DNA of 64,000 nt from NCBI GenBank assembly GCA_964464605.1, contig CAYXJN010000008.1, positions 1-64,000 on the forward strand, in the 5' to 3' direction. Shown here piece after piece: positions 19,980 to 32,580 of the stretch (position 1 is its first letter; each line of letters begins with the position of its first letter). The notes below the pieces were generated by a model. That model did no database searches, was not told where the DNA came from, and saw only the letters and a list, made by a program, of their open reading frames with translations. The DNA is from an uncultured Ignavibacteriales bacterium. GTDB lineage: Bacteria > Zixibacteria > MSB-5A5 > GN15 > FEB-12. The position numbers and the translations under genes were made by a program.

Positions 19980-21602
19980 TTGCCCATTAGCCTTGATGAA
20001 CTAAATCGACTCTTAACAAGTCGTGAAAATGAACATTTTGAATGTAAAGAAGCAAAAAATCGCTACGACTTTGAGGAGTTAGTTCAATATTGTGTCGCAT
20101 TGGCTAACGAAGGAGGTGGAGTTTTTGCTTTAGGTATCTCAGACAAAATTCCACGTACAATTGTTGGCTCTAAAGCTTTTCCTGAACCAGAACGTACTGC
20201 TTCCTCAATTACCGATCGGATTCATCTAAAAATAATAGGATATGATCTTCAGCATCCTAATGGCAGAGTAGTGCTTTTTGAAGTTCCAAGTATGCACAAA
20301 GGGGTACCTGTCCAATATAAGGGCGCGTTTTTAATGCGTTCTGGAGATTCGTTAGTGCCGATGACATCTGATCGTCTTAAACAAATTTTGGAAGAAACTA
20401 CTTTAGATTTCAGTGCTGAGATTTGTGAGGGAGCACTAATCGAAGACATTGATCCTCATGCCATTGAAATATTTAGAAATCTTTGGGCTAAAAAGCATGG
20501 AAATGAATCACTCCACAATCTAACCCCTGAACAACTACTACATGATGCTGAATTATTGGTAGATGGAAAAGTTACAAATGCTGCACTGATATTACTTGGA
20601 ACCCGTAAAGCTTTGTCGAAATTTCTGGGACATGCAGAATTGATTTTTGAATACAGGTCGAGCGAAGTATCAGGCGCAGCACAGCAGCGAGTAGAATTTA
20701 GAATGGGGTATCTGCTCTATCATGAAGATTTGTGGAATCTCGTAAATTTACGAAATGACATACAACATTTCCACGACGGTCTTCTTGTGAGAGATATCCG
20801 AACTTTTAACGAAATAGCAATAAGAGAAGCGGTTCAAAATGCAGTAACTCATCGTGACTATCGATTAGCCAGTTCTGTATTTGTACGGCAATATTCACAA
20901 AAAATAGAAATTGTGAGCCCAGGGGGATTTCCTTTAGGAATTAATCTTGATAATATTTTACAGCAGCAAAACCCGCGTAACAGAAGAATCGCAGAAGCTT
21001 TATCAAGATGTGGTTTGGTTGAGCGTTCTGGTCAAGGTGTAAATTTAATGTTTGAAGAAAGTATTAAAGAAAGTAAGCCTAAACCTGACTTTACTGGAAC
21101 GGATTATTCTCAAGTGTTTCTTACTTTAAGCGGATCAGTACAAGATCCAAAATTTATTATATTTTTAGAGCAAGTTGGGCAAGAAACTTTACGATCCTTT
21201 ACAACTCAAGATTTCATCTTGCTTGATTTAATTAGTAAAGAACAGACTATACCCGATTATTTAAAGCTTAGATTGCAAAGACTGATTGAAATTGGCGTTA
21301 TCGAAGTTTTTGGAAAAGGACGAGGTACTAGACATATTATCTCTCGTCGTTTTTATGAAACAGTCGGAAAAAAAGGAACATACACGCGAAAACGAGGTCT
21401 TGACCGAGACACTAACAAAGCACTGCTTTTTAAGCACATCAAATTAAACTCGCAAACAGGCAGTCAACTTAATGAACTTCAGCAGGTACTTCCATCCTTA
21501 TCTATACATCAGATTAGGACTTTGTTGAGGGAAATGAAATCTGTGGGTGCAATTCTTTGCCATGGACGAACTCGTTCAGGTCGTTGGTATCCCAAGACAT
21601 AA
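19980..21602 (+). CDS. AlbA_2 (Schlafen-like) + HATPase_c_4 + winged-helix protein; AT-rich
   Basis: ENEHFECKE...ALANEGGG...GISD; EAVQNAVTHRDY, SPGG, PRN, ERSGQG; C-terminal HTH-like region. Confidence 0.85.
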   Translation: MPISLDELNRLLTSRENEHFECKEAKNRYDFEELVQYCVALANEGGGVFALGISDKIPRTIVGSKAFPEPERTASSITDRIHLKIIGYDLQHPNGRVVLFEVPSMHKGVPVQYKGAFLMRSGDSLVPMTSDRLKQILEETTLDFSAEICEGALIEDIDPHAIEIFRNLWAKKHGNESLHNLTPEQLLHDAELLVDGKVTNAALILLGTRKALSKFLGHAELIFEYRSSEVSGAAQQRVEFRMGYLLYHEDLWNLVNLRNDIQHFHDGLLVRDIRTFNEIAIREAVQNAVTHRDYRLASSVFVRQYSQKIEIVSPGGFPLGINLDNILQQQNPRNRRIAEALSRCGLVERSGQGVNLMFEESIKESKPKPDFTGTDYSQVFLTLSGSVQDPKFIIFLEQVGQETLRSFTTQDFILLDLISKEQTIPDYLKLRLQRLIEIGVIEVFGKGRGTRHIISRRFYETVGKKGTYTRKRGLDRDTNKALLFKHIKLNSQTGSQLNELQQVLPSLSIHQIRTLLREMKSVGAILCHGRTRSGRWYPKT

Positions 21603-21753
21603 ACGTGAGATTCCGGTGAAATGAGCCTAATAACCTAATGATAAATCAACTAAATACGCATAGCTTGTTGTCCTGCAATAGGTTGCGAGGCCGCCCATTA
21701 GGTTTAACTTAAGGTTTTCGGGGAATTTTCACCTAATTGAAAAGGCATAAAAT

Positions 21754-22137
21754 TTGAAATTCTTATTCGTTCTTCTCGGTGGGGCGTTTGGGTCGGGGAT
21801 GCGGTACCTGCTTGCCGGGTACGTGCAGAACCAAACCAAGTCTGCTTTTCCCTACGGAACATTTATCGTCAATTGTATCGGGTGCTTAATCGCCGGATTT
21901 TTAGGTGCGCTGTTTTTGCACGTTATGCCGATTCGGGAAGAGTTTCGCGTAGGTATATTTGTCGGTGTACTCGGCGGCTTCACCACCTTTTCGGCTTTCG
22001 GATGGGAAACAATGACATTAGTGCGGGATGGGCAATACACGTTGGCGGCACTGAATGTTTTAGCAAGTGTTATCATCGGATTATTGGCGGTGTGGGTCGG
22101 ATATAAATTAGGAACGTTACTGCAGGGAGTATCATGA
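21754..22137 (+). CDS. crcB: Fluoride efflux channel Fluc/CrcB
   Basis: GGAFGSGMRY, PYGTFIVN, GGFTTFSAF. Confidence 0.93.
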   Translation: MKFLFVLLGGAFGSGMRYLLAGYVQNQTKSAFPYGTFIVNCIGCLIAGFLGALFLHVMPIREEFRVGIFVGVLGGFTTFSAFGWETMTLVRDGQYTLAALNVLASVIIGLLAVWVGYKLGTLLQGVS

Positions 22138-22373
22138 GCGAGTATCGGTTATTGCTAATCGGCGGGGCTATGATTTTGCTTGGGGGGGCGTGGGAAATCT
22201 ACAATGTCATGGCCGGTACCTGGCCGTTTATGGGAACATGGATTCTAATGGGGCTCGGTGCAATTGTAGTAATTGCCGGACTATTTAAGTTAAGCGCAAA
22301 ACTCGGATTCTGGGCGATGATAATGTTTCTGCTTGCCGGACTGATGCTGCTCAGTCTCTGGTGGTGGTCGTAG
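22134..22373 (+). CDS. Small three-TM membrane protein
   Basis: 79 aa, hydrophobic, ATGA overlap with crcB and GGAG upstream. Confidence 0.65.
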   Translation: MSEYRLLLIGGAMILLGGAWEIYNVMAGTWPFMGTWILMGLGAIVVIAGLFKLSAKLGFWAMIMFLLAGLMLLSLWWWS

Positions 22374-22394
22374 TTGGGGAGTTCGAGATTTTCT

Positions 22395-23348
22395 TTATTT
22401 CATTTTCCTCCACAGAGTGGAATAAATATATACCCGTTCTTCAGTGTATTCTTTACCATCGACCGAATCTATAACAATCTTTCTCATTTTTGAGCCTTGT
22501 AAATACTCATAGATGATTTTTCTCGGAAACCCGGTATCGATATTCACAAAGGTGTACTCTGCCTCCTTCACTCGAACGAGTTTGAGTGTGATTACCTTGT
22601 TCGAATCTTTGGGTGTGATCGTTAGAAACATGATAGGACTTTCCCATTGTAACATACGCTCTTCCAACTCAAGTGAGTCGCTCCCAGTTACTCTCCACAG
22701 TGTACTACCACCGTCATCAGAAAGGCCGGTTCTCCATTCTTCAATCAAAGTATCACCATTATCCACGAAATACCAACGGCCGGACATCCACTCGAAGCAG
22801 GTCGGGTCGCAGCCGCCTGTTTCCGAGACCATTTCTGTTGAATCGATTACAGGCTGTCTTGCTGCTTGATTCAATAATCTAGAGCGGACAAAGAGTTGTT
22901 CGATGACTTGCTTCTTATCGTTAATTTTGCCCTCTCTCACAGTTCGAAGCGTATCGGTATTGATAAGCTCATAAATCACTTTTGCCGGGAAGCCGGTATC
23001 TGTGTTAACGAATGTAAACCTCAACCCTTCCGAACTGGTCAGCTTGAGCGAGGTCGTGCTGCTCGAATCGGGAGAAGTTATGACGAAAAACATCTCCACA
23101 TCCTTCCATTGAATCTCAAGATGCTCTAGTTTGATTGTATCGTTACCGTCAATATTGAAAAGGCTGCCGAATGAACCTTTCGAAATGTCAGTTCCCCATC
23201 GCATCAACAAAGAATCTTTTGTATCCACTGATCGCCAATAACCGCCAAGCCACTCGAAACAAGTTGGGTCACAACCATAGGCCTGTTGAGTAATGAAAAA
23301 AAACAACAGTACGACTGCAGATAGTAGATGATATTTGAACTTTTTCAT
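22395..23348 (-). CDS. Secreted protein with two tandem DUF6265-like domains
   Basis: Signal peptide; repeats GCDPTCFEW-x2-G-x-W ... TFVNxDTGFP-x-K-x-IYE. Confidence 0.65.
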   Translation of the reverse strand: MKKFKYHLLSAVVLLFFFITQQAYGCDPTCFEWLGGYWRSVDTKDSLLMRWGTDISKGSFGSLFNIDGNDTIKLEHLEIQWKDVEMFFVITSPDSSSTTSLKLTSSEGLRFTFVNTDTGFPAKVIYELINTDTLRTVREGKINDKKQVIEQLFVRSRLLNQAARQPVIDSTEMVSETGGCDPTCFEWMSGRWYFVDNGDTLIEEWRTGLSDDGGSTLWRVTGSDSLELEERMLQWESPIMFLTITPKDSNKVITLKLVRVKEAEYTFVNIDTGFPRKIIYEYLQGSKMRKIVIDSVDGKEYTEERVYIYSTLWRKMK

Positions 23349-23377
23349 AAATCCCCTTTTATGATGAGAGAAAATTA

Positions 23378-24235
23378 CTATTCCCTTATCCGCCGCATCT
23401 TCTCGATAAACTCATCAGCTTCACGTTTAGACAGGCCTTTCTCTACTAAGGCTTCCTTACTAAGATCAAAACCTGCGAGCCGGTCTTTCAATACTGCGAG
23501 TTCGGGGCCGGAGAAGTAAAACGAGTTGACGCTGTAATCCATGAACGCCTCATACGCAAACGGCACGATAACTTTCACGATATCAGCCATCACGAGCCCG
23601 TATTCCTGAATCTCTTTTTGGGCGTGCGGGTCCATGCGCAAACGGAGAAAGTGGAACAGATTCCACAAATCGATTTTCCAGTACCATTCGGTATAGAGCG
23701 AGAGCGGTAAATTGATACGCGCTAATTCACGTGCGAGATCAGCACCGATGTATTCTTCATACTTTTTGTAATTCTCACTTGTCGATGCTTCCAAATGCTG
23801 CAGGAAATCCTGCTTGAGTTCGTCCGGCACTTCTTTATCCGAGCGGCCTTGTTTGTTGACCGTCGATTGGTAGCGAATATCGGACGCGTTTGGGGTGTAG
23901 AACTCCTCTTTCATGATCGAATAGCGGCCGGAGTATTCATTTACGTTTGCGGTGCGGTGGCGAATCCACTGACGGGCGACAAAAATGGGGAGTTTGACAT
24001 GGAATTTGAATTCGACCATCTCGAATGGGGTAGTGTGGTGATGCCGCATCAGATAGCGGATCAACCCGCGATCTTCGGAAAGTTTTTTGGTTCCCTCGCC
24101 ATAGGATACCCGTGCCGCCTGAACGATAGCGGTGTCGGAACCCATATAATCGACCAGCCGGACAAAGCCGTGGTCGAGCACTTTGTGCTCTTTATCTAAA
24201 AGCGCGTCTGCTTCTGCGTTTATTGCGTGTCCCAT
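23378..24235 (-). CDS. thyX: FAD-dependent thymidylate synthase
   Basis: AARVSY, HTTPFEM, RQWIRHR...NEYSGRY, ELAR, AQKEI. Confidence 0.95.
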   Translation of the reverse strand: MGHAINAEADALLDKEHKVLDHGFVRLVDYMGSDTAIVQAARVSYGEGTKKLSEDRGLIRYLMRHHHTTPFEMVEFKFHVKLPIFVARQWIRHRTANVNEYSGRYSIMKEEFYTPNASDIRYQSTVNKQGRSDKEVPDELKQDFLQHLEASTSENYKKYEEYIGADLARELARINLPLSLYTEWYWKIDLWNLFHFLRLRMDPHAQKEIQEYGLVMADIVKVIVPFAYEAFMDYSVNSFYFSGPELAVLKDRLAGFDLSKEALVEKGLSKREADEFIEKMRRIRE

Positions 24236-24292
24236 AGTGAGAGATAATACGGCAGAAGCAGTCACCGGGCAAGTAATCAGTCGATCCGGTTT

Positions 24293-26524
24293 TTAGAATT
24301 GCAGGCGGTATAGTAGTTTGAAATTTCGCGCCGCTTCCGGCATGACCGCGTTTACCCGGGACAAATGGTTGCGGTATTCAGTGCTGGCGATGTTTTCCAC
24401 ATTCAGTATCAGGCTGTGCAGGATTTTTTTCGTGGAAAAATGATACTGGCTCAATAGATCGAATACGATATACCCGGCAGTTGGTTCTTCAAACTCTCCA
24501 AGCTTGTCCTGTTTGTCGGCAGCCCGAATTCTGAGCTTCGTCAGCAGTGAAGTGCGTGGAGAGTATCCAATCCAGACATGCCCCTGTAATGGAGGAATGA
24601 GCGGTAAATTACTGTTGTCGTCAGCCACTTTACCACGCACGAAGGAGATATTTCCACCCAAACTAAACTGCTTAAGAGGTTGTACGTCTGCGCTGAGTTC
24701 AAAACCGTAGAAATGCGCATCCCGTCCACGATATTGATAGCGAAGGAGGCGGCCCGTTTCGCCGGGGCCGTATTCGTATTCACCGGTGTTTGATGCATAA
24801 ATATATCTGTCAAACCAATTTCTAAAAAAAGACGCCGTAATTTTTGTATGTTCTCGACGAAAACGAGTTGTCCATTCCAAGCTGACTCCGGACTCTGAAG
24901 ACAGGTTAGCGTTACCGATTTCATAGGAATAAGCGGCGATATGCGGCCCTTCAGAAAACAATTCTTCGATCCCCGGAGCGTTAAATGAACGGAGAACCGT
25001 TCCTTCCATAGTGATTGATTTGGCAATTGGAAATTGCATAGCAAGCGAAGCAGAAATTCCCTGAAAGTCCCTCCGACGTATGATACCGGTCTTGTTTGTA
25101 TCGATAGCTTCAGGTGACGTAGAGCGATAATCAAATCGAAAGGCTGTTTTGAATAGCAGGCTGTCGACGTATATTTCTTTGTACAAATAAGCCGCCGCTG
25201 CTCGTTCGATAGCATCGGGGGTGAAGGTCAGACAGGTTTGAGCATAGTCACGATATTCAGCCCAGACACCGAGTGTGCCGCCGCCACGCAGCCATGATGG
25301 AGACAGCATAAGCTGTGCGGTTGCGTTATATTGCAGAACGCCAAAGCCAACTCCGCAGACATCTTCAAGTTCCAGTTCGCGATGAAAATATCGGTTGTAA
25401 CTTGTGCGAAGCACGAAGCGTTGAATAACATCGTGGTTAATGCCATATTCAAAATAGCTGTCTATATTACTGCGTTCGAGTTCAATTGTTACTCCATTTT
25501 TGTGACCGCCCAAGAATCCGCCGGGAATACCATACTCGGTAACGTATCTGCTTGTCTCAATACCAAGTCGAAATCGATCCCGTATATACCCACCGCCGAC
25601 AAAGTAACTATGCGTATGAATTTCTGTATTGTTTAGTTTACCGTTAGGAGTGCGCAAATCACCGGAAAGGCGGCCTTCCGTTCCAACCGTTGCGACAAGG
25701 TTTTGATACGGAATCACTACAGTTACATCGCCGCCCAATCCATCGTTCACTGTTTCCGATTGTGTACTTATGTTGCCGGATATTTGTGGTGGCACAGAAG
25801 CCGGAATACGTTCGCGCCGAACATTGATGATACCGCCAACTGTATTAGAACCAAATAATAGAGCCGCCGGGCCTCGGATGACTTCAATTGACGTCGAACC
25901 TATAGGATCAATAACGACTGCGTGATCCGCAGATGTTGATGAAAGATCACCCGTTTTTTCTCCATCTTCCAGAACCAGCAGTCGATTTCCTCCCAATCCG
26001 CGAAGTACCGGACGAGCCGGGGCTGGCCCCATTGTACGTTGGGCAATTCCGGGTTCATTGGCGATAGTCTCCGCAACGGTACGGCCTAATTTTTCCTCAA
26101 GATTACGGCTGGATACAGTGATTGCTCTCGCTTTGTATGATGGGTCATTATGACCACTACTATCGGTGATTGTGAGACTTTGTAGTTGGATTGGATCGGA
26201 TTGCATCGAGAACGACAGCACAGTATCAGTGGACAGAAATATTTCACGGCGGATATCTGTGTATCCGATTAGGTGCAGTAAAATCGTGTGTTTTCCAGCA
26301 GGAAGATGCTGTATCAGAAAGTGTCCACTGGAATCCGTTGCAATTCGTTTATTCTGCGTTTCAATCGAGATACTGACACCACCAAGCGAAGCGCCCGTAC
26401 GCTGATCATATACTGTACCGTTCACGTCATACAATATCTGCGGATCAGCTTTATCCGGAACTGCAACCAATCCTGTCAGAAAGCAGCAGTTCCATAGGCA
26501 TCGCTTTATGAGCGTTGCTTTCAC
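24293..26524 (-). CDS. TonB-dependent receptor, ZnuD-like metal transporter
   Basis: N-terminal carboxypeptidase-regulatory-like domain; plug RPVLRG...DHAV...IEVIRGPAALLFG; ELFSEGPH; terminal Phe. Confidence 0.9.
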   Translation of the reverse strand: MKATLIKRCLWNCCFLTGLVAVPDKADPQILYDVNGTVYDQRTGASLGGVSISIETQNKRIATDSSGHFLIQHLPAGKHTILLHLIGYTDIRREIFLSTDTVLSFSMQSDPIQLQSLTITDSSGHNDPSYKARAITVSSRNLEEKLGRTVAETIANEPGIAQRTMGPAPARPVLRGLGGNRLLVLEDGEKTGDLSSTSADHAVVIDPIGSTSIEVIRGPAALLFGSNTVGGIINVRRERIPASVPPQISGNISTQSETVNDGLGGDVTVVIPYQNLVATVGTEGRLSGDLRTPNGKLNNTEIHTHSYFVGGGYIRDRFRLGIETSRYVTEYGIPGGFLGGHKNGVTIELERSNIDSYFEYGINHDVIQRFVLRTSYNRYFHRELELEDVCGVGFGVLQYNATAQLMLSPSWLRGGGTLGVWAEYRDYAQTCLTFTPDAIERAAAAYLYKEIYVDSLLFKTAFRFDYRSTSPEAIDTNKTGIIRRRDFQGISASLAMQFPIAKSITMEGTVLRSFNAPGIEELFSEGPHIAAYSYEIGNANLSSESGVSLEWTTRFRREHTKITASFFRNWFDRYIYASNTGEYEYGPGETGRLLRYQYRGRDAHFYGFELSADVQPLKQFSLGGNISFVRGKVADDNSNLPLIPPLQGHVWIGYSPRTSLLTKLRIRAADKQDKLGEFEEPTAGYIVFDLLSQYHFSTKKILHSLILNVENIASTEYRNHLSRVNAVMPEAARNFKLLYRLQF

Positions 26525-27804
26525 GGAGCTACGACTATCGGAATATACGGGGTGCTGAATACAACGGCGTTATTCTTGATGTAATGCATCCGAACCGAGG
26601 TATTGCCGACTGCAACTCCCTTCAAATGAAAAATACGGTATTCACCCCAATGTACAGGGTGATACAGCGAGCGTGCTATTCCGGCATCCGCGAAATCGAA
26701 AACAAGAATCGGCTTCGACTCGGCAGGTTGAACACGGTTACAACTGTCAGCTGCATCCGGCAGGAAAAAAGAATATAGGTCAGTTAATACGCCAGCTTGC
26801 AGTTCAAATTGGTTCGGTACTGCCGTTGTTCGCGCACAATCTGCTGTCCCGTCGGTAAATTCACCGTGTCGTAAAAAAGTCCACCAAACACCGCCTTTGG
26901 TTATCATACAGGAAGCAGCTGAGTCACCACCTACGGGAATTACCGACCGAACATAGATCGGAATAGCGCCGGAACTGAATTCCTGAACACCGTTCCAAAG
27001 AAGGCGAACCGAAATCGTCGTTTTGCCAATAGTGAGTCCGTTAACTCGAAGTTTCCACCGCTCTCCCGTTACGAGGGTTACAGATGTTATTGTCGAGTCA
27101 GCAAGCTGCCAAGCAAGTGAATAGCCGGAATCAGCGGGTATGACACTGATCCTTGCTGAGTCAGCATCTTTGAGCGTGTCAAGAAATTGAATATCAATAT
27201 CAGTGGTAAGCCCTTGTTCTACTACAACGGCGCCAAACACCTGATTCAATCCGCTGGGATGGTAATTCCAGTTGGCCAGCATGTTTCCATTTCGTGAAAT
27301 GGCAAGTGCAGTTGCACCAAGCGGCGAGTGCGGGGTAGACGAGGTAACGGAAACAGGAATCTGCTGTGATGTGAAATCAGTATGGTTAACATGCCAGATA
27401 CGAAGGACGAGGCTGGTTGTCCCGATTTGTTGGCCGCGAATGATAAATTTCCATTTTTGACCCGGTATGGAATCAACGGTAGCAATGGCCGTATCGGCAA
27501 TTTGCAGGCGAAGCGTATGTTCGTCACAAAGGGCGCTGTTAATTCGGACGCTGTCGGCATCAAGGAATACGACGGTTAAGACATCAGTCGAGTCCCCGAA
27601 CAAAACTTCGATGTTTCCGGTAACGGTTCCCTCCCACTGCTGTGCCAACACACTGCTTGCCTCTACCAAGAGTCCTTCTGCATCAATATGATCACATTCA
27701 GTCGGGTTGCTGTCTGCCGGATTTTTGCTGCTACAAGAGAAAATGATAACCATGAAAGAACCGGCAACACAAAAGATTAATAGAAAATGCGCTAATCGTT
27801 TCAT
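26521..27804 (-). CDS. Lipoprotein with three Ig-like repeats, putative metal-binding
   Basis: Lipobox FSC; repeat 1 has HIDAEGL...HVNHTDF, homologous to the repeats of the upstream gene. Confidence 0.75.
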   Translation of the reverse strand: MKRLAHFLLIFCVAGSFMVIIFSCSSKNPADSNPTECDHIDAEGLLVEASSVLAQQWEGTVTGNIEVLFGDSTDVLTVVFLDADSVRINSALCDEHTLRLQIADTAIATVDSIPGQKWKFIIRGQQIGTTSLVLRIWHVNHTDFTSQQIPVSVTSSTPHSPLGATALAISRNGNMLANWNYHPSGLNQVFGAVVVEQGLTTDIDIQFLDTLKDADSARISVIPADSGYSLAWQLADSTITSVTLVTGERWKLRVNGLTIGKTTISVRLLWNGVQEFSSGAIPIYVRSVIPVGGDSAASCMITKGGVWWTFLRHGEFTDGTADCARTTAVPNQFELQAGVLTDLYSFFLPDAADSCNRVQPAESKPILVFDFADAGIARSLYHPVHWGEYRIFHLKGVAVGNTSVRMHYIKNNAVVFSTPYIPIVVAP

Positions 27805-27823
27805 TAAATGTTTCCTTGTAATT

Positions 27824-27877
27824 TAGCTATGAGCCGCCGCGTGAAAGGATTAGGATGCTCAGCGGCGACTCATGCTA
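27824..27877 (-). other. Intercistronic stem-loop
   Basis: TAGCATGAGTCGCCGC...GCGGCGGCTCATAGCTA on the minus strand; G-U pair forms only on the mRNA strand; no U-tail. Confidence 0.5.
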
Positions 27878-27916
27878 TCAGGAGAGCGGGGCTATCGTTT
27901 AATTACCTTATATCGT

Positions 27917-29260
27917 TCACGGGCAGAGTGGTGGCTGTGGCCCACTGTTGAAAAGAAATTGAACAAGGTACGTTAAGTCCGCTACCGTGATATTACCGGT
28001 TCCATTTACATTCGCTTCGAGGTTACATACCGGTGCTGAACCGTTGTTAAAAAGAAACTGCACTAGAAACACCAAGTCAGCTACGGTTACTCCGTCTCCA
28101 GCGCTGTTGTTCACGTTGCCGCGACGATTGATACAGCATGATGTAACGCTAAGGTCAATGTCGGGAGAGGTGTAGTCAGTGTGCTCTTCGTGATGTATGC
28201 CGATAGTCAGCGAGGTCGTCCCGGTTGCAATACCGGTGACAGTGAACTCCCATTCTCCCGTTTGTTGGAAAGAAGCCAACGTAGTATCGGACAGAGTGTG
28301 TTCTAAAGAAAATCCGTCGACCGTATCAGGCTGGAAAAGTTCGGATTCGGCGCTAACGAACCATACCGTAATCGGACTGGATGTTTGTTGATGGAATACT
28401 TCGATCTCACCCGTTACGGTAGAACCGTCGACAACTACGACGGTATCTCCGTTCCGCACCAGTCGAAGCCCTTCCGCTTCGGCATGTTCTTCTTCAACAT
28501 GCACTTCGATTTCTGGTGACAAATAGTCGATATGATCTTCATGGAATATACCAATGAATAATGAAGTCATTCCTTCTTCAACCCCGGTTATCGTAAATTC
28601 CCATTCTCCGGTCTGTTGAATGGTGGCCAGAGTAGTGTCAGTTAATGAGTCAACCAAAGCAAAGCCATCGGCTGTGTCCGGTTGGAACAGTTCAGCTTCC
28701 GCCGAAACGAACCAAACTTCAATCGGGTCGGTCGTTTCTTCATGATGTGCTTCAACTTCACCAGTAACCGTAGCGCCATCGACGTAGACAATCGTATCAC
28801 CGTTTTGAACGAGGCGAAGTCCTTCAGCTTCGGCATGATCGTGCTCAATATGAACTTCGATATCGGGTGAAGTGTAGTCATCCGAACCGGCTAAGTACTG
28901 AGTAAGAATCATATCGACATGACCATGCTCATCAATCGAAGAAAGGGTAAATGTCCATGTGGTTAACTTCGTAATTGCCACCAGACTGCTGTCTGAAACT
29001 TCGATTTTCACCGAGTCGCCGACACCGGAAGGCTGAAAACGGGAGCTGTCGTTGGCAAGCCAGAAGATTTCGAGCGTGCCAGAGGTGCCTCCTTCCAGCA
29101 ACTCAACTTCTCCCGTTGCTACTCCATCCCAAACCCAAACGATTTCGTTTCCGTCCTCTTCTATAATCAGGCCGCGTGCAGCTGCGTTGGCATGGGTTGA
29201 CCATAGCGTAACGACAGCAATAGCAAGCAGACATGCGTATATCATTCTGCGGATATGCAT
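27917..29260 (-). CDS. Secreted His/Glu-rich protein with three ~120-aa repeats and C-terminal dockerin
   Basis: Signal peptide; HAEAEGLRLV...HE(D/E)HxDY repeats; CCINRRGNVN...TVADL twice. Confidence 0.8.
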   Translation of the reverse strand: MHIRRMIYACLLAIAVVTLWSTHANAAARGLIIEEDGNEIVWVWDGVATGEVELLEGGTSGTLEIFWLANDSSRFQPSGVGDSVKIEVSDSSLVAITKLTTWTFTLSSIDEHGHVDMILTQYLAGSDDYTSPDIEVHIEHDHAEAEGLRLVQNGDTIVYVDGATVTGEVEAHHEETTDPIEVWFVSAEAELFQPDTADGFALVDSLTDTTLATIQQTGEWEFTITGVEEGMTSLFIGIFHEDHIDYLSPEIEVHVEEEHAEAEGLRLVRNGDTVVVVDGSTVTGEIEVFHQQTSSPITVWFVSAESELFQPDTVDGFSLEHTLSDTTLASFQQTGEWEFTVTGIATGTTSLTIGIHHEEHTDYTSPDIDLSVTSCCINRRGNVNNSAGDGVTVADLVFLVQFLFNNGSAPVCNLEANVNGTGNITVADLTYLVQFLFNSGPQPPLCP

Positions 29261-29342
29261 ACAATATCTCCCTTCGCGCCAGATGTAGCTCACCTGACAC
29301 GGTATAGTTGTTCAAAAAAGTGTTATGAGTAACTGCTGAAAA

Positions 29343-29678
29343 TTAAGCAGTTATAGGAGGAGCGCGGAGATCGGAAGGAGATGTAGAAACAGGCTTTGTG
29401 GGAATGCTATGGTCGTACTGAATTCGCTCTATTATCTGCAACTCTATGGATACTGTTGTCGCAGGAACAGTAGGTGTATACAGCGTTGTCGCAAACAAAC
29501 AGACTTGGCAGTGGTCGGTCGAGGAACGATGGGAATGGGAAGCATCCTCACATTCAGCGTTGTCCGTGTGCATGCTGACCAGTACAGAACTGGCGCTTAA
29601 CGCACATATAACCAGTATGGCAACAAGCCGGCGCAAAAACGAACTACGAGAATTTAGTTGTTTCATCGTATAAAGCAT
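29343..29678 (-). CDS. DUF2946/CruR-like leader protein with CxxC and C-terminal RAPP motif
   Basis: Hydrophobic N-terminal segment, His cluster, HCQVC, Pro/Thr spacer, ends LRAPPITA; heads a TBDT operon. Confidence 0.8.
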   Translation of the reverse strand: MLYTMKQLNSRSSFLRRLVAILVICALSASSVLVSMHTDNAECEDASHSHRSSTDHCQVCLFATTLYTPTVPATTVSIELQIIERIQYDHSIPTKPVSTSPSDLRAPPITA

Positions 29679-29722
29679 ATATGATTAACTCGTCTTTGTC
29701 AATATAGCTAAAACAGAAAGAG

Positions 29723-31057
29723 GTGCAAATGAACGCGTTGTCGGTATCTGGCTCTCTTTCCCGGATCGTGATCGTCGGTGGCGGATTTGCCGGGTTGAAC
29801 GCCGCGATGGCGCTCAAAAAAGCGGAGGCGGAAGTTATTTTGATCGACCGCCGGAATTATCATCTGTTCCAGCCGCTATTGTATCAGGTCGCGACGGCAA
29901 CACTCAGCCCTGCAGACATTGCTTATCCGATTCGCAAAGTGCTGAAGGACCAGCAAAATGCGCAGGTGATTTTGGGGGAAGTAACCAATATCGATCCGGT
30001 CAACAAACAGATACTGCTGGCCGGAAGCGATGTCGACATTCATTACGATTATCTGATTTTAGCCTCCGGTTCAACGCACTCCTACTTCGGTCATGATGAT
30101 TGGGAAACAATTGCGCCGGGATTGAAAACAATCGAAGATGCTACCGAAATGCGGCGTCGGTTTTTGCTCGCGTTTGAATCGGCAGAGCAGGAAGCGGATC
30201 CGGCTGCACGAAAAGCAGCGCTAACATTCGTTATTGTCGGCGGTGGTCCGACCGGTGTGGAACTCGCCGGTTCAATGGCGGAAATTGCAAGGTCGGCGAT
30301 TCCTGAAGATTTTCGGATGATCGATACCGCTACTGCGCGGATTATTCTTATCGAAGGATTACCCCGTCTATTGTCAGCTTTTACGGAGGAATGCTCGGCG
30401 GCATCACTGAAACAGTTGCATGAACTCGGCGTGGAGGCACTGCTCAATACCCGAGTCACGGCCGTTGATAAAAGCGGTGTGCAGATAGGAGATTCACGAA
30501 TCGATGCGGCCAATGTTTTTTGGGCAGCGGGTGTGAAAGCATCGCCACTGGGAAAAGCGCTCGGTGTTGCAACAGATACTACCGGAGCGGTGAAAGTATT
30601 GCCCGATCTTTCTGTACCGAATTATCCGGATGTTTTTGTCGCCGGTGATTTGGCGGTAGTTATCGATCCGAAAACGAACAAACCGGTGCCGCATGTTGCG
30701 CAGGGTGGAATTCAAATGGGGAAGTTCATCGGTAATATGATCAAGCGAGAAGTACAGGCAAAACAAAACGGGAAATCATTGCCTGAGCGCGTACCCTTTC
30801 AATATAACGATAAAGGGAATCTGGCAACGATCGGCCGTAACCGCGCGGTAGCAGATGTCAAAGGATGGAAATTCAGCGGGATATTTGCTTGGTTGTTATG
30901 GGCATTAGTTCACGTTTCTTATTTGATAACATTTCGCAGCCGGTTCTCGGTGATGATCTCATGGATTTGGCAGTATATTTTTTATGACCGGGGCGCGCGG
31001 TTGATTACCGGCAACAGCAGAATTTCAGTAAAAGTCCCCCGTGACCGCGATGCCTAA
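29723..31057 (+). CDS. ndh: Type II NADH:quinone oxidoreductase
   Basis: GGGFAG, FQPLLYQVAT, VGGGPTGVELAG, WAAG, KGNLATIGR. Confidence 0.92.
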   Translation: MQMNALSVSGSLSRIVIVGGGFAGLNAAMALKKAEAEVILIDRRNYHLFQPLLYQVATATLSPADIAYPIRKVLKDQQNAQVILGEVTNIDPVNKQILLAGSDVDIHYDYLILASGSTHSYFGHDDWETIAPGLKTIEDATEMRRRFLLAFESAEQEADPAARKAALTFVIVGGGPTGVELAGSMAEIARSAIPEDFRMIDTATARIILIEGLPRLLSAFTEECSAASLKQLHELGVEALLNTRVTAVDKSGVQIGDSRIDAANVFWAAGVKASPLGKALGVATDTTGAVKVLPDLSVPNYPDVFVAGDLAVVIDPKTNKPVPHVAQGGIQMGKFIGNMIKREVQAKQNGKSLPERVPFQYNDKGNLATIGRNRAVADVKGWKFSGIFAWLLWALVHVSYLITFRSRFSVMISWIWQYIFYDRGARLITGNSRISVKVPRDRDA

Positions 31058-31202
31058 ATCAATTTAGCGATCATTTAAAATCAGATAGTAACTGACTATC
31101 AGTCGATATATTTCTTCTCCACCAATTACAAATATCGGAACTCACCCAACGCAATTCTTGTTTTATCAAACGGACAAGACTTTAAACAGTGGTGAGGTGA
31201 AC

Positions 31203-31598
31203 ATGAGTCCATCAGTCCGGCTTTTATCTGCATGTATGGTATTCGGGATGCTTTTTGTTTCCGGATGCAGCAGCGATAAAGGGACAGACAATAACGGCGG
31301 CGGGGGTGGAGGCGGCGGTAGCCGGGAATTTGTTTCCGGAAATCTTGCCAACGGACAATCATTTGAACATGTATTCGATAGCGCCGGTGTCTATCCGTAT
31401 TACTGCCGTTTTCATGGAGATTCAGGTGGTGTAGGTATGTCCGGAGTTATTACTGTCAATCCAGGTGGAACACCGAGTAAAGAGCAGTACAACATTACTA
31501 CGAATACTACGCTGCCGAGTGATGTTATCGATGTTGGCGACACAGCCCGCTGGACAAACAATACGGCGATGACCCACACCGTTGAGTCTGATTTTTAA
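31203..31598 (+). CDS. Cupredoxin (plastocyanin/azurin-like) lipoprotein, circularly permuted
   Basis: Lipobox VSGC, poly-Gly linker; YYCRFH...M comes before GDTARWTN...HTV. Confidence 0.8.
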   Translation: MSPSVRLLSACMVFGMLFVSGCSSDKGTDNNGGGGGGGGSREFVSGNLANGQSFEHVFDSAGVYPYYCRFHGDSGGVGMSGVITVNPGGTPSKEQYNITTNTTLPSDVIDVGDTARWTNNTAMTHTVESDF

Positions 31599-31617
31599 TT
31601 TCGTTAAATCGTTACTG

Positions 31618-31646
31618 AAAGCCTCTGTGCAAACAGGGGCTTTTTT
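31618..31646. terminator. Intrinsic terminator between convergent genes
   Basis: AAAGCCTCTGT...ACAGGGGCTTT followed by Ts. Confidence 0.7.
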
Positions 31647-32580
31647 ATTGGCTTTGTTTTTCCATCGGAATCAGCCATCCCAAAATTGCGGCAGCGGATT
31701 CAATAGTCAGATTCCAAATACGGGCGGCGATTGCAATTCCCGCTGAGATAGGACCAAAATACGGAGTGAGCAACGCAGTCATAGTGAGTTCACGAACGCC
31801 GATTCCACCGGGAGTGAAGAAAGCAAGATAACCAAGCTGATACGGAACAATGTAGGTCGCAATCCCCCAGATAACCGGCATCTGAATGGTAGTCGTGACT
31901 GATTGCACGAAGAGCCAAAACGCAAGTCCGTAACCGATCCAGCACAATAACGAACCGATATAAATTTGCGCCGCCATAGCGACGGAGATACGCGCTTCGA
32001 TTGGTTTACGATTCAGTTTCGTGAGCAGCCAATTATATAATCCAAGAGTTCTGTTCGGCTGCAAAACGAAATAAAAGGATAAAAGCAGAATCGCAATAGC
32101 CGTGATATACAAAGAGGGGCCGGTGAATTGCACGAGGTCACCACTAATAATTTCCGGATTGAGCGCAATCGCCACGGCTCCGGCGATGACTGAAGCAATC
32201 ATCGAAAACAAAAGCGTGATTCCCCATGAGGCTACCGCTACCGATTGCGGAATCGAAATCTTTTTACAGAGGTATAGCATCCCGAACACCTGCCAGACTC
32301 TTCCCGGCAGATAGCGCCCCATATTGGTCATGTAGCTGATTTTGAATCCATGCGGCAGTGAAACGGAGTAGCCGAATCCTTCGATAATGATACACCAAAC
32401 TTTGGAATAGAGAAAAAAGGAAGCGAGCTGCACGAGAATGGAAAGAATCAACAGTGTCGGGTGAATCTGCCAGTCGTAAGAAGAAACCTGCGGCCAGTTT
32501 TGTGCTAACTGTCGCCCGACGAAATAGAGAATGACGACTGTTAACAGAAGCTTGATGATATTGGCAATAATTGCGCGCAT
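31645..32580 (-). CDS. Lysylphosphatidylglycerol synthase TM / flippase-like membrane protein
   Basis: Multi-TM; GRYLPG and TPGGIGVRE motifs. Confidence 0.85.
   Translation of the reverse strand: MRAIIANIIKLLLTVVILYFVGRQLAQNWPQVSSYDWQIHPTLLILSILVQLASFFLYSKVWCIIIEGFGYSVSLPHGFKISYMTNMGRYLPGRVWQVFGMLYLCKKISIPQSVAVASWGITLLFSMIASVIAGAVAIALNPEIISGDLVQFTGPSLYITAIAILLLSFYFVLQPNRTLGLYNWLLTKLNRKPIEARISVAMAAQIYIGSLLCWIGYGLAFWLFVQSVTTTIQMPVIWGIATYIVPYQLGYLAFFTPGGIGVRELTMTALLTPYFGPISAGIAIAARIWNLTIESAAAILGWLIPMEKQSQ

Follow-up and report, generated by a model that had tools for sequence, protein, structure and literature searches.

Background

Leader peptides ending in RAPP or RGPP are encoded by upstream open reading frames ahead of TonB-dependent receptor genes (TonB receptors below) across Gram-negative bacteria (PMC12992588). 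We describe an operon with such a leader in a 64,000-nucleotide window (the whole stretch of DNA that was analysed, positions 1 to 64,000 of contig CAYXJN010000008.1, assembly GCA_964464605.1) from an uncultured bacterium of the Zixibacteria lineage with a genome of 2.8 Mb. The operon encodes the leader, a repeat protein with a dockerin tail (hereafter protein A), a repeat lipoprotein and a TonB receptor. The closest described leader is CruR of Bordetella pertussis (Bp2923, DUF2946/PF11162), the small first gene, with an export-type N-terminus, of the operon of the TonB receptor BfrG (PMC9426467). Its arrest of the ribosome has been demonstrated in vitro (PMC12992588), and the 45 residues that separate its CxxC motif from RAPP are kept within 1-2 residues family-wide (PMC9426467). 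CutF of Rhodobacter capsulatus is likewise a DUF2946-like exported leader followed by a short intergenic region (PMC9973294; bioRxiv 10.1101/2025.02.05.636593); 5,334 CutF-like proteins have been catalogued, some of them not copper-specific (PMC9973294).

On the receptor side, the reference system is ZnuD of Neisseria meningitidis (PDB 4RDR), which binds zinc through Asp99, His100, Glu340 and His499 and captures it by clusters in its His-rich loop 3 (PMC4557270); Zur-controlled receptors are treated in PMC4176598. As for the tail of protein A, a scaffold joining cohesin to the C-terminal domain (CTD) of type IX secretion systems (T9SS), with dockerin-bearing enzymes as clients, has been proposed for Cloacimonadota (PMC8542988), and knowledge of metal-binding proteins secreted by the T9SS is described as limited (PMC11205867).

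A first-pass annotation of the window had proposed a metal uptake operon under a RAPP leader, with a relay from a dockerin-tethered chelator to the lipoprotein and the receptor that could supply zinc, copper or nickel, or else salvage metal from proteins undergoing degradation. Our analysis favours, on balance and with moderate confidence, a zinc-scavenging operon: a ZnuD-type importer would be served by two capture proteins built of His-triad immunoglobulin-like (Ig) domains, under a CruR-type leader predicted to stall ribosomes when the metal is scarce.

Results

The receptor and the case for zinc

ZnuD is the best match of the receptor in both the PDB and NCBIfam. Searched as a single sequence, the receptor has one PDB match at E≤1e-10, which is ZnuD (7e-29); a profile of 18 receptor sequences ranks ZnuD (8.6e-80) far ahead of PhuR (1.6e-30) and of the copper receptor OprC (1.6e-28), and the NCBIfam ZnuD model NF038289 gives 191.4 bits as compared with 58 for the copper TonB receptor model. 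All four high-affinity ligands are common to both proteins: D200, H201, E383 and H528 align with D99, H100, E340 and H499 of ZnuD (numbering offset 14, anchored on the 241-HSHEY motif of PMC4557270), and the four positions are invariant in 18/18 receptors of related cassettes. In this zinc site the Asp-His pair belongs to the plug and the last His to loop 6. Because the receptor keeps the complete ligand set, the transported metal is probably zinc. The metal uptake operon of the first-pass annotation is thus supported by sequence, and its three-way choice of metal is narrowed, with zinc favoured.

Unlike ZnuD, the receptor has no His-rich loop 3: in place of the roughly 63 residues of ZnuD it has some 11, one of them an invariant His. 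It further differs in carrying a CarboxypepD_reg-like domain at its N-terminus, in being paired with capture proteins, and in that no Fur-type box was detected for its cassette. A fur-family gene and znuA, znuC and znuB are encoded elsewhere in the genome (G000:C5:43795-46673, + strand). A perfect 24-bp palindrome of Fur type, unique in the genome, overlaps the promoter-like site before these genes and ends 5 nucleotides (nt) ahead of the start codon; the next best match in the genome is 16/20 and the best near the cassette 13/20. We infer that the palindrome is a Zur box and, since no good copy of it lies near the cassette, that the cassette would escape the repressor of the znuACB operon.

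The His-triad Ig repeat

Protein A consists of a signal peptide, three repeats of about 117 residues and a C-terminal dockerin. The lipoprotein is its homologue, as had been proposed (29% identity over 256 columns, E 2e-19). Pfam lacks a family for the repeat, and none reaches its cut-off there on protein A. The AlphaFold model of repeats 2-3 is all-beta (pLDDT 96.6) and matches the Ig domains of SbsC, LigA, invasin and Nup210, with a best Z of 10.3 for two domains (root-mean-square deviation, rmsd, 9.9) and of 8.3 for a single domain (rmsd 2.7, 96 aligned). By fold only, the modelled repeat belongs with Big_2-like Ig domains; leads in the ESM Atlas all stay under 0.9 and comprise unnamed clusters and Big_2/Nup210. 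The family is large: a repeat profile search returned 1753 clusters (at 50% identity) at E≤0.001 and 743 at E≤1e-10, with no match among viral contigs.

The repeat has two conserved motifs, of which H(xEAxG) is N-terminal and HxxHxD(Y/F) lies at the last hairpin; judged by strand order in Ig folds, the three His of this triad would meet in space. In the lipoprotein the first repeat combines the triad with a conserved Cys pair, and the last has a conserved HPxHWGE. The description of protein A as His-rich holds for the positionally conserved triad and not for its overall content, a modest 17 His. A complete triad occurs in one or more repeats of 37/38 cassette proteins and of 137/161 database proteins, and in 0/5 of the repeat copies on other dockerin proteins (four C1 or M28 peptidases and one fragment). 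In loci L055, L058, L061 and L062, C1 and M28 peptidases have a single triad-less repeat, which acts as spacer ahead of the dockerin.

The repeat also occurs in an archaeal ZnuA, in a single example: the ZnuA-family protein of Halorubrum gandharaense (PF01297, 139.7 bits) contains three inserted copies. Repeats that are very rich in His occur in this protein (P0157, three repeats) and in P0134, a lipoprotein of similar acidic composition with four.

The RAPP leader

The leader has a hydrophobic N-terminal segment (judged by reading the sequence), SHSH and HCQVC motifs, and RAPP three residues ahead of the stop. It matches PF11162 (DUF2946) with 23.7 bits, exactly the cut-off, and 44 residues separate CQVC from RAPP; in these respects the CruR-like leader of the first-pass annotation is borne out. 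When PF11162 was run on 11 related leaders, two gave matches under the cut-off and nine none. Short open reading frames (ORFs) of the leader pattern ending in R[AG]PP number two among the 14,042 mechanical ORFs of the genome; each places CxxC 44 residues ahead of RAPP and stands at the head of a TonB receptor locus. The second of them (G000:C1:252937-253224, - strand; L135) has a leaderless-like promoter and is followed directly by its receptor, without a repeat lipoprotein; its C>G excess over synonymous shuffles is the strongest seen (z 3.6). The distance from Cys to RAPP is 41-46 residues in all 31 leaders read. In tagged loci, that is, those where a tailed repeat protein follows the leader, CxxC is intact in all leaders read and the gap is 44-46. 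Two variants were seen in other loci: a Balneolaceae region (L090:5331-11565) has two tandem RAPP leaders, each ahead of its own TonB receptor, and at L079:5500-6000 RDPP replaces RAPP before the same lipoprotein-receptor pair.

In CruR as in the present leader, CxxC precedes a C-terminal RAPP by 44-45 residues. The two operons differ in that the receptor here is of ZnuD type, two His-triad Ig proteins stand in place of a PepSY_TM gene, the intergenic region is 82 nt long instead of 162, and the mRNA is likely leaderless; moreover, the second Cys is absent from 13/31 of the leaders related to the present one. With CutF the locus shares the possibility that the Shine-Dalgarno (SD) sequence of the next gene is paired in the intergenic region. 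In the presence of copper, however, CutF activates an oxidase that detoxifies this metal, whereas the importer here would be expected to switch off.

Two routes from the leader to the downstream genes were considered. The SD sequence of protein A can pair with C/U-rich codons of the leader (z -1.82). Against synonymous shuffles the pairing gives z -0.25 at the present locus and a pooled z of -3.0 over 17 related loci; the latter covers 17 of the 31 leaders, with 13 from Balneolaceae (no SD signal) and L051 (uncertain start) left out, and it is overstated since the loci are kin. A gain in SD accessibility above 0.1 is seen in 9/31 loci, the present one not among them, and masking of the ribosome-binding site is not shown here. 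As for Rho, which is encoded in the genome, the last 90 nt of the leader contain 30 C and 12 G, a composition in the top 0.2% of 1242 long ORFs; the C excess over synonymous shuffles is only z 1.0, and the composition of this C-rich tail, considered as a rut site, is mostly accounted for by amino-acid content.

Distribution of the cassette

The repeat query matched 24/285 genomes of the same phylum. The loci examined in 19 of these genomes comprise 11 with leader, lipoprotein and receptor, four in which a tagged protein follows the leader (two of them complete, one spread over two contigs and one cut by a contig end) and four copies of peptidase type. In a GTDB scan, 16/52 loci had the repeat: 14 three-gene loci of Balneolaceae and two four-gene loci with a CTD/FlgD tail. 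The Balneolaceae loci have lipoprotein and receptor in 14/14 and an R[AS]PP leader in 13/14. Two further phyla gave 11/201 matching genomes each. Among 20 regions examined from the further scans (19 from those two phyla and one from another search), five have a CTD-type tagged protein near the lipoprotein, and several repeat genes lie in other contexts.

The widespread core is formed by leader, lipoprotein and receptor, and the tagged protein is an add-on; since most cassettes do not have it, a three-step relay would be optional.

The dockerin tail and its possible partners

Pfam gives no PF00404 dockerin match on protein A; its homologues P0038 and P0142 are above the cut-off. The AlphaFold model of the tail (pLDDT 94.4) was compared with the PDB, and the matches listed down to rank 33 are all of dockerin type, with TM-scores ≤0.74 and none at E <0.001; the dockerin profile matches PDB dockerins at 6e-5. 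The proposed dockerin therefore stands as a fold, by model and by profile. Its Ca-binding loops are Asn-rich and short in this genome, and Asp-rich in relatives. Dockerins occur on 61 ORFs of the genome, 59 of them at the C-terminus and none with a terminal CTD motif, and were matched in 41/41 related genomes. The dockerin fold of protein A, as modelled, is real but generic.

Other repeat proteins use a different tail. By a motif rule, 32 of 161 repeat proteins have a PNP-type tail and six a dockerin, and 33/35 of the proteins submitted to Pfam had CTD/FlgD matches. A quick receptor tree of 26 rows has a branch (SH-aLRT 100) one side of which consists of the receptors from four dockerin loci and two CTD loci. 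Given this grouping, the tail has probably been swapped inside a single lineage of cassettes.

The genome encodes candidate partners for a dockerin: six cohesin matches, three of them above the cut-off, together with T9SS parts (27 CTD matches, SprA, the PorV family and C25). A 288-residue protein composed of signal peptide, cohesin and T9SS CTD (G000:C5:3998-4864, + strand; L116) has homologues in 104/108 genomes of the family, and a CTD motif ends the protein in 29/29 of the top loci examined; on sequence grounds it is a candidate universal surface adaptor for the roughly 60 dockerin clients. A secreted-protein cluster at G000:C1:425900-446966 (+ strand; L117) has cohesin, internal dockerin-like and CTD modules and is a possible scaffold locus. 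The claim that the dockerin tethers protein A is thus favoured by the fold and by the cohesins of the genome, and weakened by the genome-wide use of the tag and by the T9SS-type tail of most tagged homologues.

This arrangement resembles the cellulosome-like system inferred for Ca. Stygibacter of the Cloacimonadota (PMC8542988) and the type I dockerin-cohesin pairs of clostridia in its dockerin-tagged secreted proteins, and the former also in its cohesin proteins with CTD and its Gram-negative lineage. It differs from both in that the client is a non-enzymatic candidate metal-binding protein in a transporter operon, and the main adaptor has one cohesin.

Operon layout and neighbouring genes

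The four ORFs of the operon are all present and co-oriented on the minus strand, as had been claimed (Table 1). The upstream neighbour of the leader is divergent, and the leader is the first gene; at the other end, the receptor start and the lipoprotein stop overlap by 4 nt. The start of protein A, ATG 29260, was picked by SD score. The promoter-like site ends 7 nt before ATG 29666, and for this reason the leader probably begins at that codon, with 107 residues, on a leaderless mRNA. This geometry is common to both RAPP leaders of the genome (baseline 42/1236 long ORFs), and the count of promoter-like matches across the region is not above that of shuffles. As a family trait the leaderless start was rejected: the strict pattern is found in only 4/31 leaders, one of them probably spurious. 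No Rfam family reaches its gathering score within 21000-32000.

Table 1. Features of the operon and their positions in the window
Feature	Position	Strand	Remarks
Sigma-70-like promoter, TTGACA-17-TATGCT	29674..29702	-	10/12 matches
DUF2946/CruR-like leader	29343..29678	-	likely start 29666; CQVC 29510-29499; RAPP 29366-29355
Intergenic region, 82 nt	29261..29342	-	predicted hairpins ~29353-29330 and 29302-29276; SD GGGAGAU 29273-29267
Protein A, 447 aa	27917..29260	-	signal peptide, three Ig-like repeats, dockerin tail
Protein A repeat 1	28847..29182	-	without His triad
Protein A repeats 2 and 3	28145..28846	-	predicted Big_2-like beta-sandwiches, each with H(xEAxG) and HxxHxD(Y/F)
Protein A dockerin-fold tail	27920..28144	-	Asn-rich shortened Ca loops, conserved Cys
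Lipoprotein (Cys24), three repeats	26521..27804	-	
ZnuD-like TonB-dependent receptor	24293..26524	-	plug and barrel; N-terminal CarboxypepD_reg-like domain

The thyX gene (23378-24265, - strand) lies 28 nt downstream of the receptor and was not taken into the unit, as it is unconserved after the receptor elsewhere; the gap between the two has no clear terminator. Beyond it, at 22395-23348 (- strand), the GCDPTCFEW motif is duplicated in a secreted two-repeat protein whose match to DUF6265 is weak.

Discussion

Proposed function

In the zinc-scavenging operon that we favour, ribosome pausing at RAPP would keep the downstream genes on, and metal bound to the nascent Cys/His site would free the paused ribosome, with Rho termination or a masked ribosome-binding site as the route to silencing. 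The lipoprotein, beside the receptor, may take over the role of the ZnuD capture loop. Protein A, once exported, would attach through its dockerin to a cohesin adaptor at the cell surface, which would place binding sites farther out; in other lineages the same protein would be displayed through a T9SS-type tail. Zinc would then pass through the buried D/H/E/H site to the periplasmic ZnuA encoded elsewhere. TbpB, BtuG, SusD and HasA are surface or secreted ligand-capturing helpers of TonB receptors; the capture proteins here differ from them in having an unrelated fold, tandem Big_2-like Ig domains with a His triad.

Several points weigh against this interpretation. The receptor, at 191 bits, is far below the NCBIfam ZnuD cut-off of 950. 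The clustering of the triad His is a prediction from strand order in Ig folds. Protein A has no T9SS tail of its own, and the tagged protein is absent from most cassettes. In the wider scans the receptor adjoins the repeat gene in only 7/20 regions, and two loci with CTD-tagged protein and lipoprotein (L203, L208) have no receptor in the stretch examined. Masking of the ribosome-binding site is not significant at the present locus by shuffles or by accessibility. Finally, the intact CxxC, which senses copper in CruR, means by analogy that copper or another metal could be the signal.

Competing explanations

The alternative that survives best keeps the zinc operon and gives protein A another place: periplasmic or shed, it would be a zinc buffer or chaperone, the dockerin a degenerate generic tag, and there would be no scaffold relay. 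Protein A has no CTD, and the dockerins of the genome are nearly all C-terminal without one, with shortened, Asn-rich Ca loops; the same repeat lies inside a ZnuA binding protein, and protein A is missing from most cassettes. We nevertheless regard this as unlikely, given that an outer-membrane export tail takes the same position in most tagged homologues, that the dockerin fold is intact in the model, and that cohesin-CTD adaptors are near-universal in the family.

A copper uptake operon regulated like CruR-BfrG is rather improbable: the ZnuD ligand set is intact, the OprC match is far weaker, the capture domain uses His, Asp and Glu with no conserved Met, and the second Cys is absent in 13/31 related leaders. 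On the other side are the agreement of CxxC and its 44-residue gap with CruR, an extra Cys pair in the receptor (C390 and C431) and a small ORF at 31158-31598 (+ strand) that is lipoprotein-like and weakly matches plastocyanin/azurin (PF00127, 29.5 bits). No similar cupredoxin-like ORF was seen by the other tagged loci of the phylum, read by eye with no scan. This ORF comes downstream of the divergent gene (29723-31057), which is NADH dehydrogenase-like. The Cys pair was also tried as a mark of the tagged type and rejected; it is found in 6/25 receptors, but its first Cys (CGVSFG) is also in the three-gene loci L213, L219 and L220.

Equally improbable is an uptake unit for nickel or cobalt with the same His chemistry. 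His triads bind these two metals as well. The exact ZnuD ligand set and the fusion of the repeat into ZnuA argue against it, no nickel or cobalt genes were noticed beside the loci read, and what speaks for it in the literature is that His-rich CutF-like leaders stand ahead of nickel and cobalt transporters (PMC9973294).

In the last alternative, the Ig repeats would be mere adhesins or spacers, and the leader would respond to export or envelope load instead of metal. This is very improbable: it can point to a fold shared with S-layer and adhesin stalks, to His-less spacer copies in peptidases and to RAPP peptides that also monitor Sec/YidC (PMC12992588), but cassette copies retain the triad that peptidase copies have lost, and the Cys-to-RAPP distance is fixed in all leaders read.

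What is known and what is new

The switch formed by a RAPP leader and a TonB receptor is not new in itself, because RAPP leaders before TonB receptors have been published as widespread (PMC12992588), and the regulatory module is already known. The novelty lies in the candidate capture domain, an Ig fold with a His triad, in its association with a ZnuD-type receptor that lacks the loop, and in the interchangeable anchors that would display it. In the literature consulted we found no description of the present cassette (the supplementary neighbour tables of PMC9426467 and PMC9973294 may list such loci), no tandem His-triad Ig capture partner of a ZnuD-type receptor, and no paper joining 'Zixibacteria' with 'dockerin' or with 'type IX secretion'; Zixibacteria, dockerin and Balneola are absent from ten supplementary files of PMC12992588, one file being outside the search.

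A broader proposal can be put forward only tentatively. The His-triad Ig domain might be a general zinc-capture module, from bacteria to haloarchaea: as a lipoprotein it would replace the ZnuD loop, in archaea it would be inserted in ZnuA, and here it would stand in tandem on a T9SS-borne cohesin-dockerin scaffold, as a metal antenna in the style of a cellulosome. A zinc-sensing stalled ribosome would alone control the outer-membrane step, and Zur only the inner-membrane step.

Conclusions

If the zinc-scavenging interpretation is true, a large domain family that has no name (743 clusters at 50% identity) would gain a function; its domain is small, predicted to fold well and easily tested for metal binding. 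ZnuD-type zinc receptors would acquire a candidate helper protein, and the range of RAPP leaders, which the cited literature shows for copper, would widen to zinc. That one protein bears a dockerin in some loci and a T9SS-type tail in others amounts to a natural experiment, which suggests that the dockerin replaces an export-and-anchor tag in this lineage and that such scaffolds carry nutrient-capture proteins besides enzymes.

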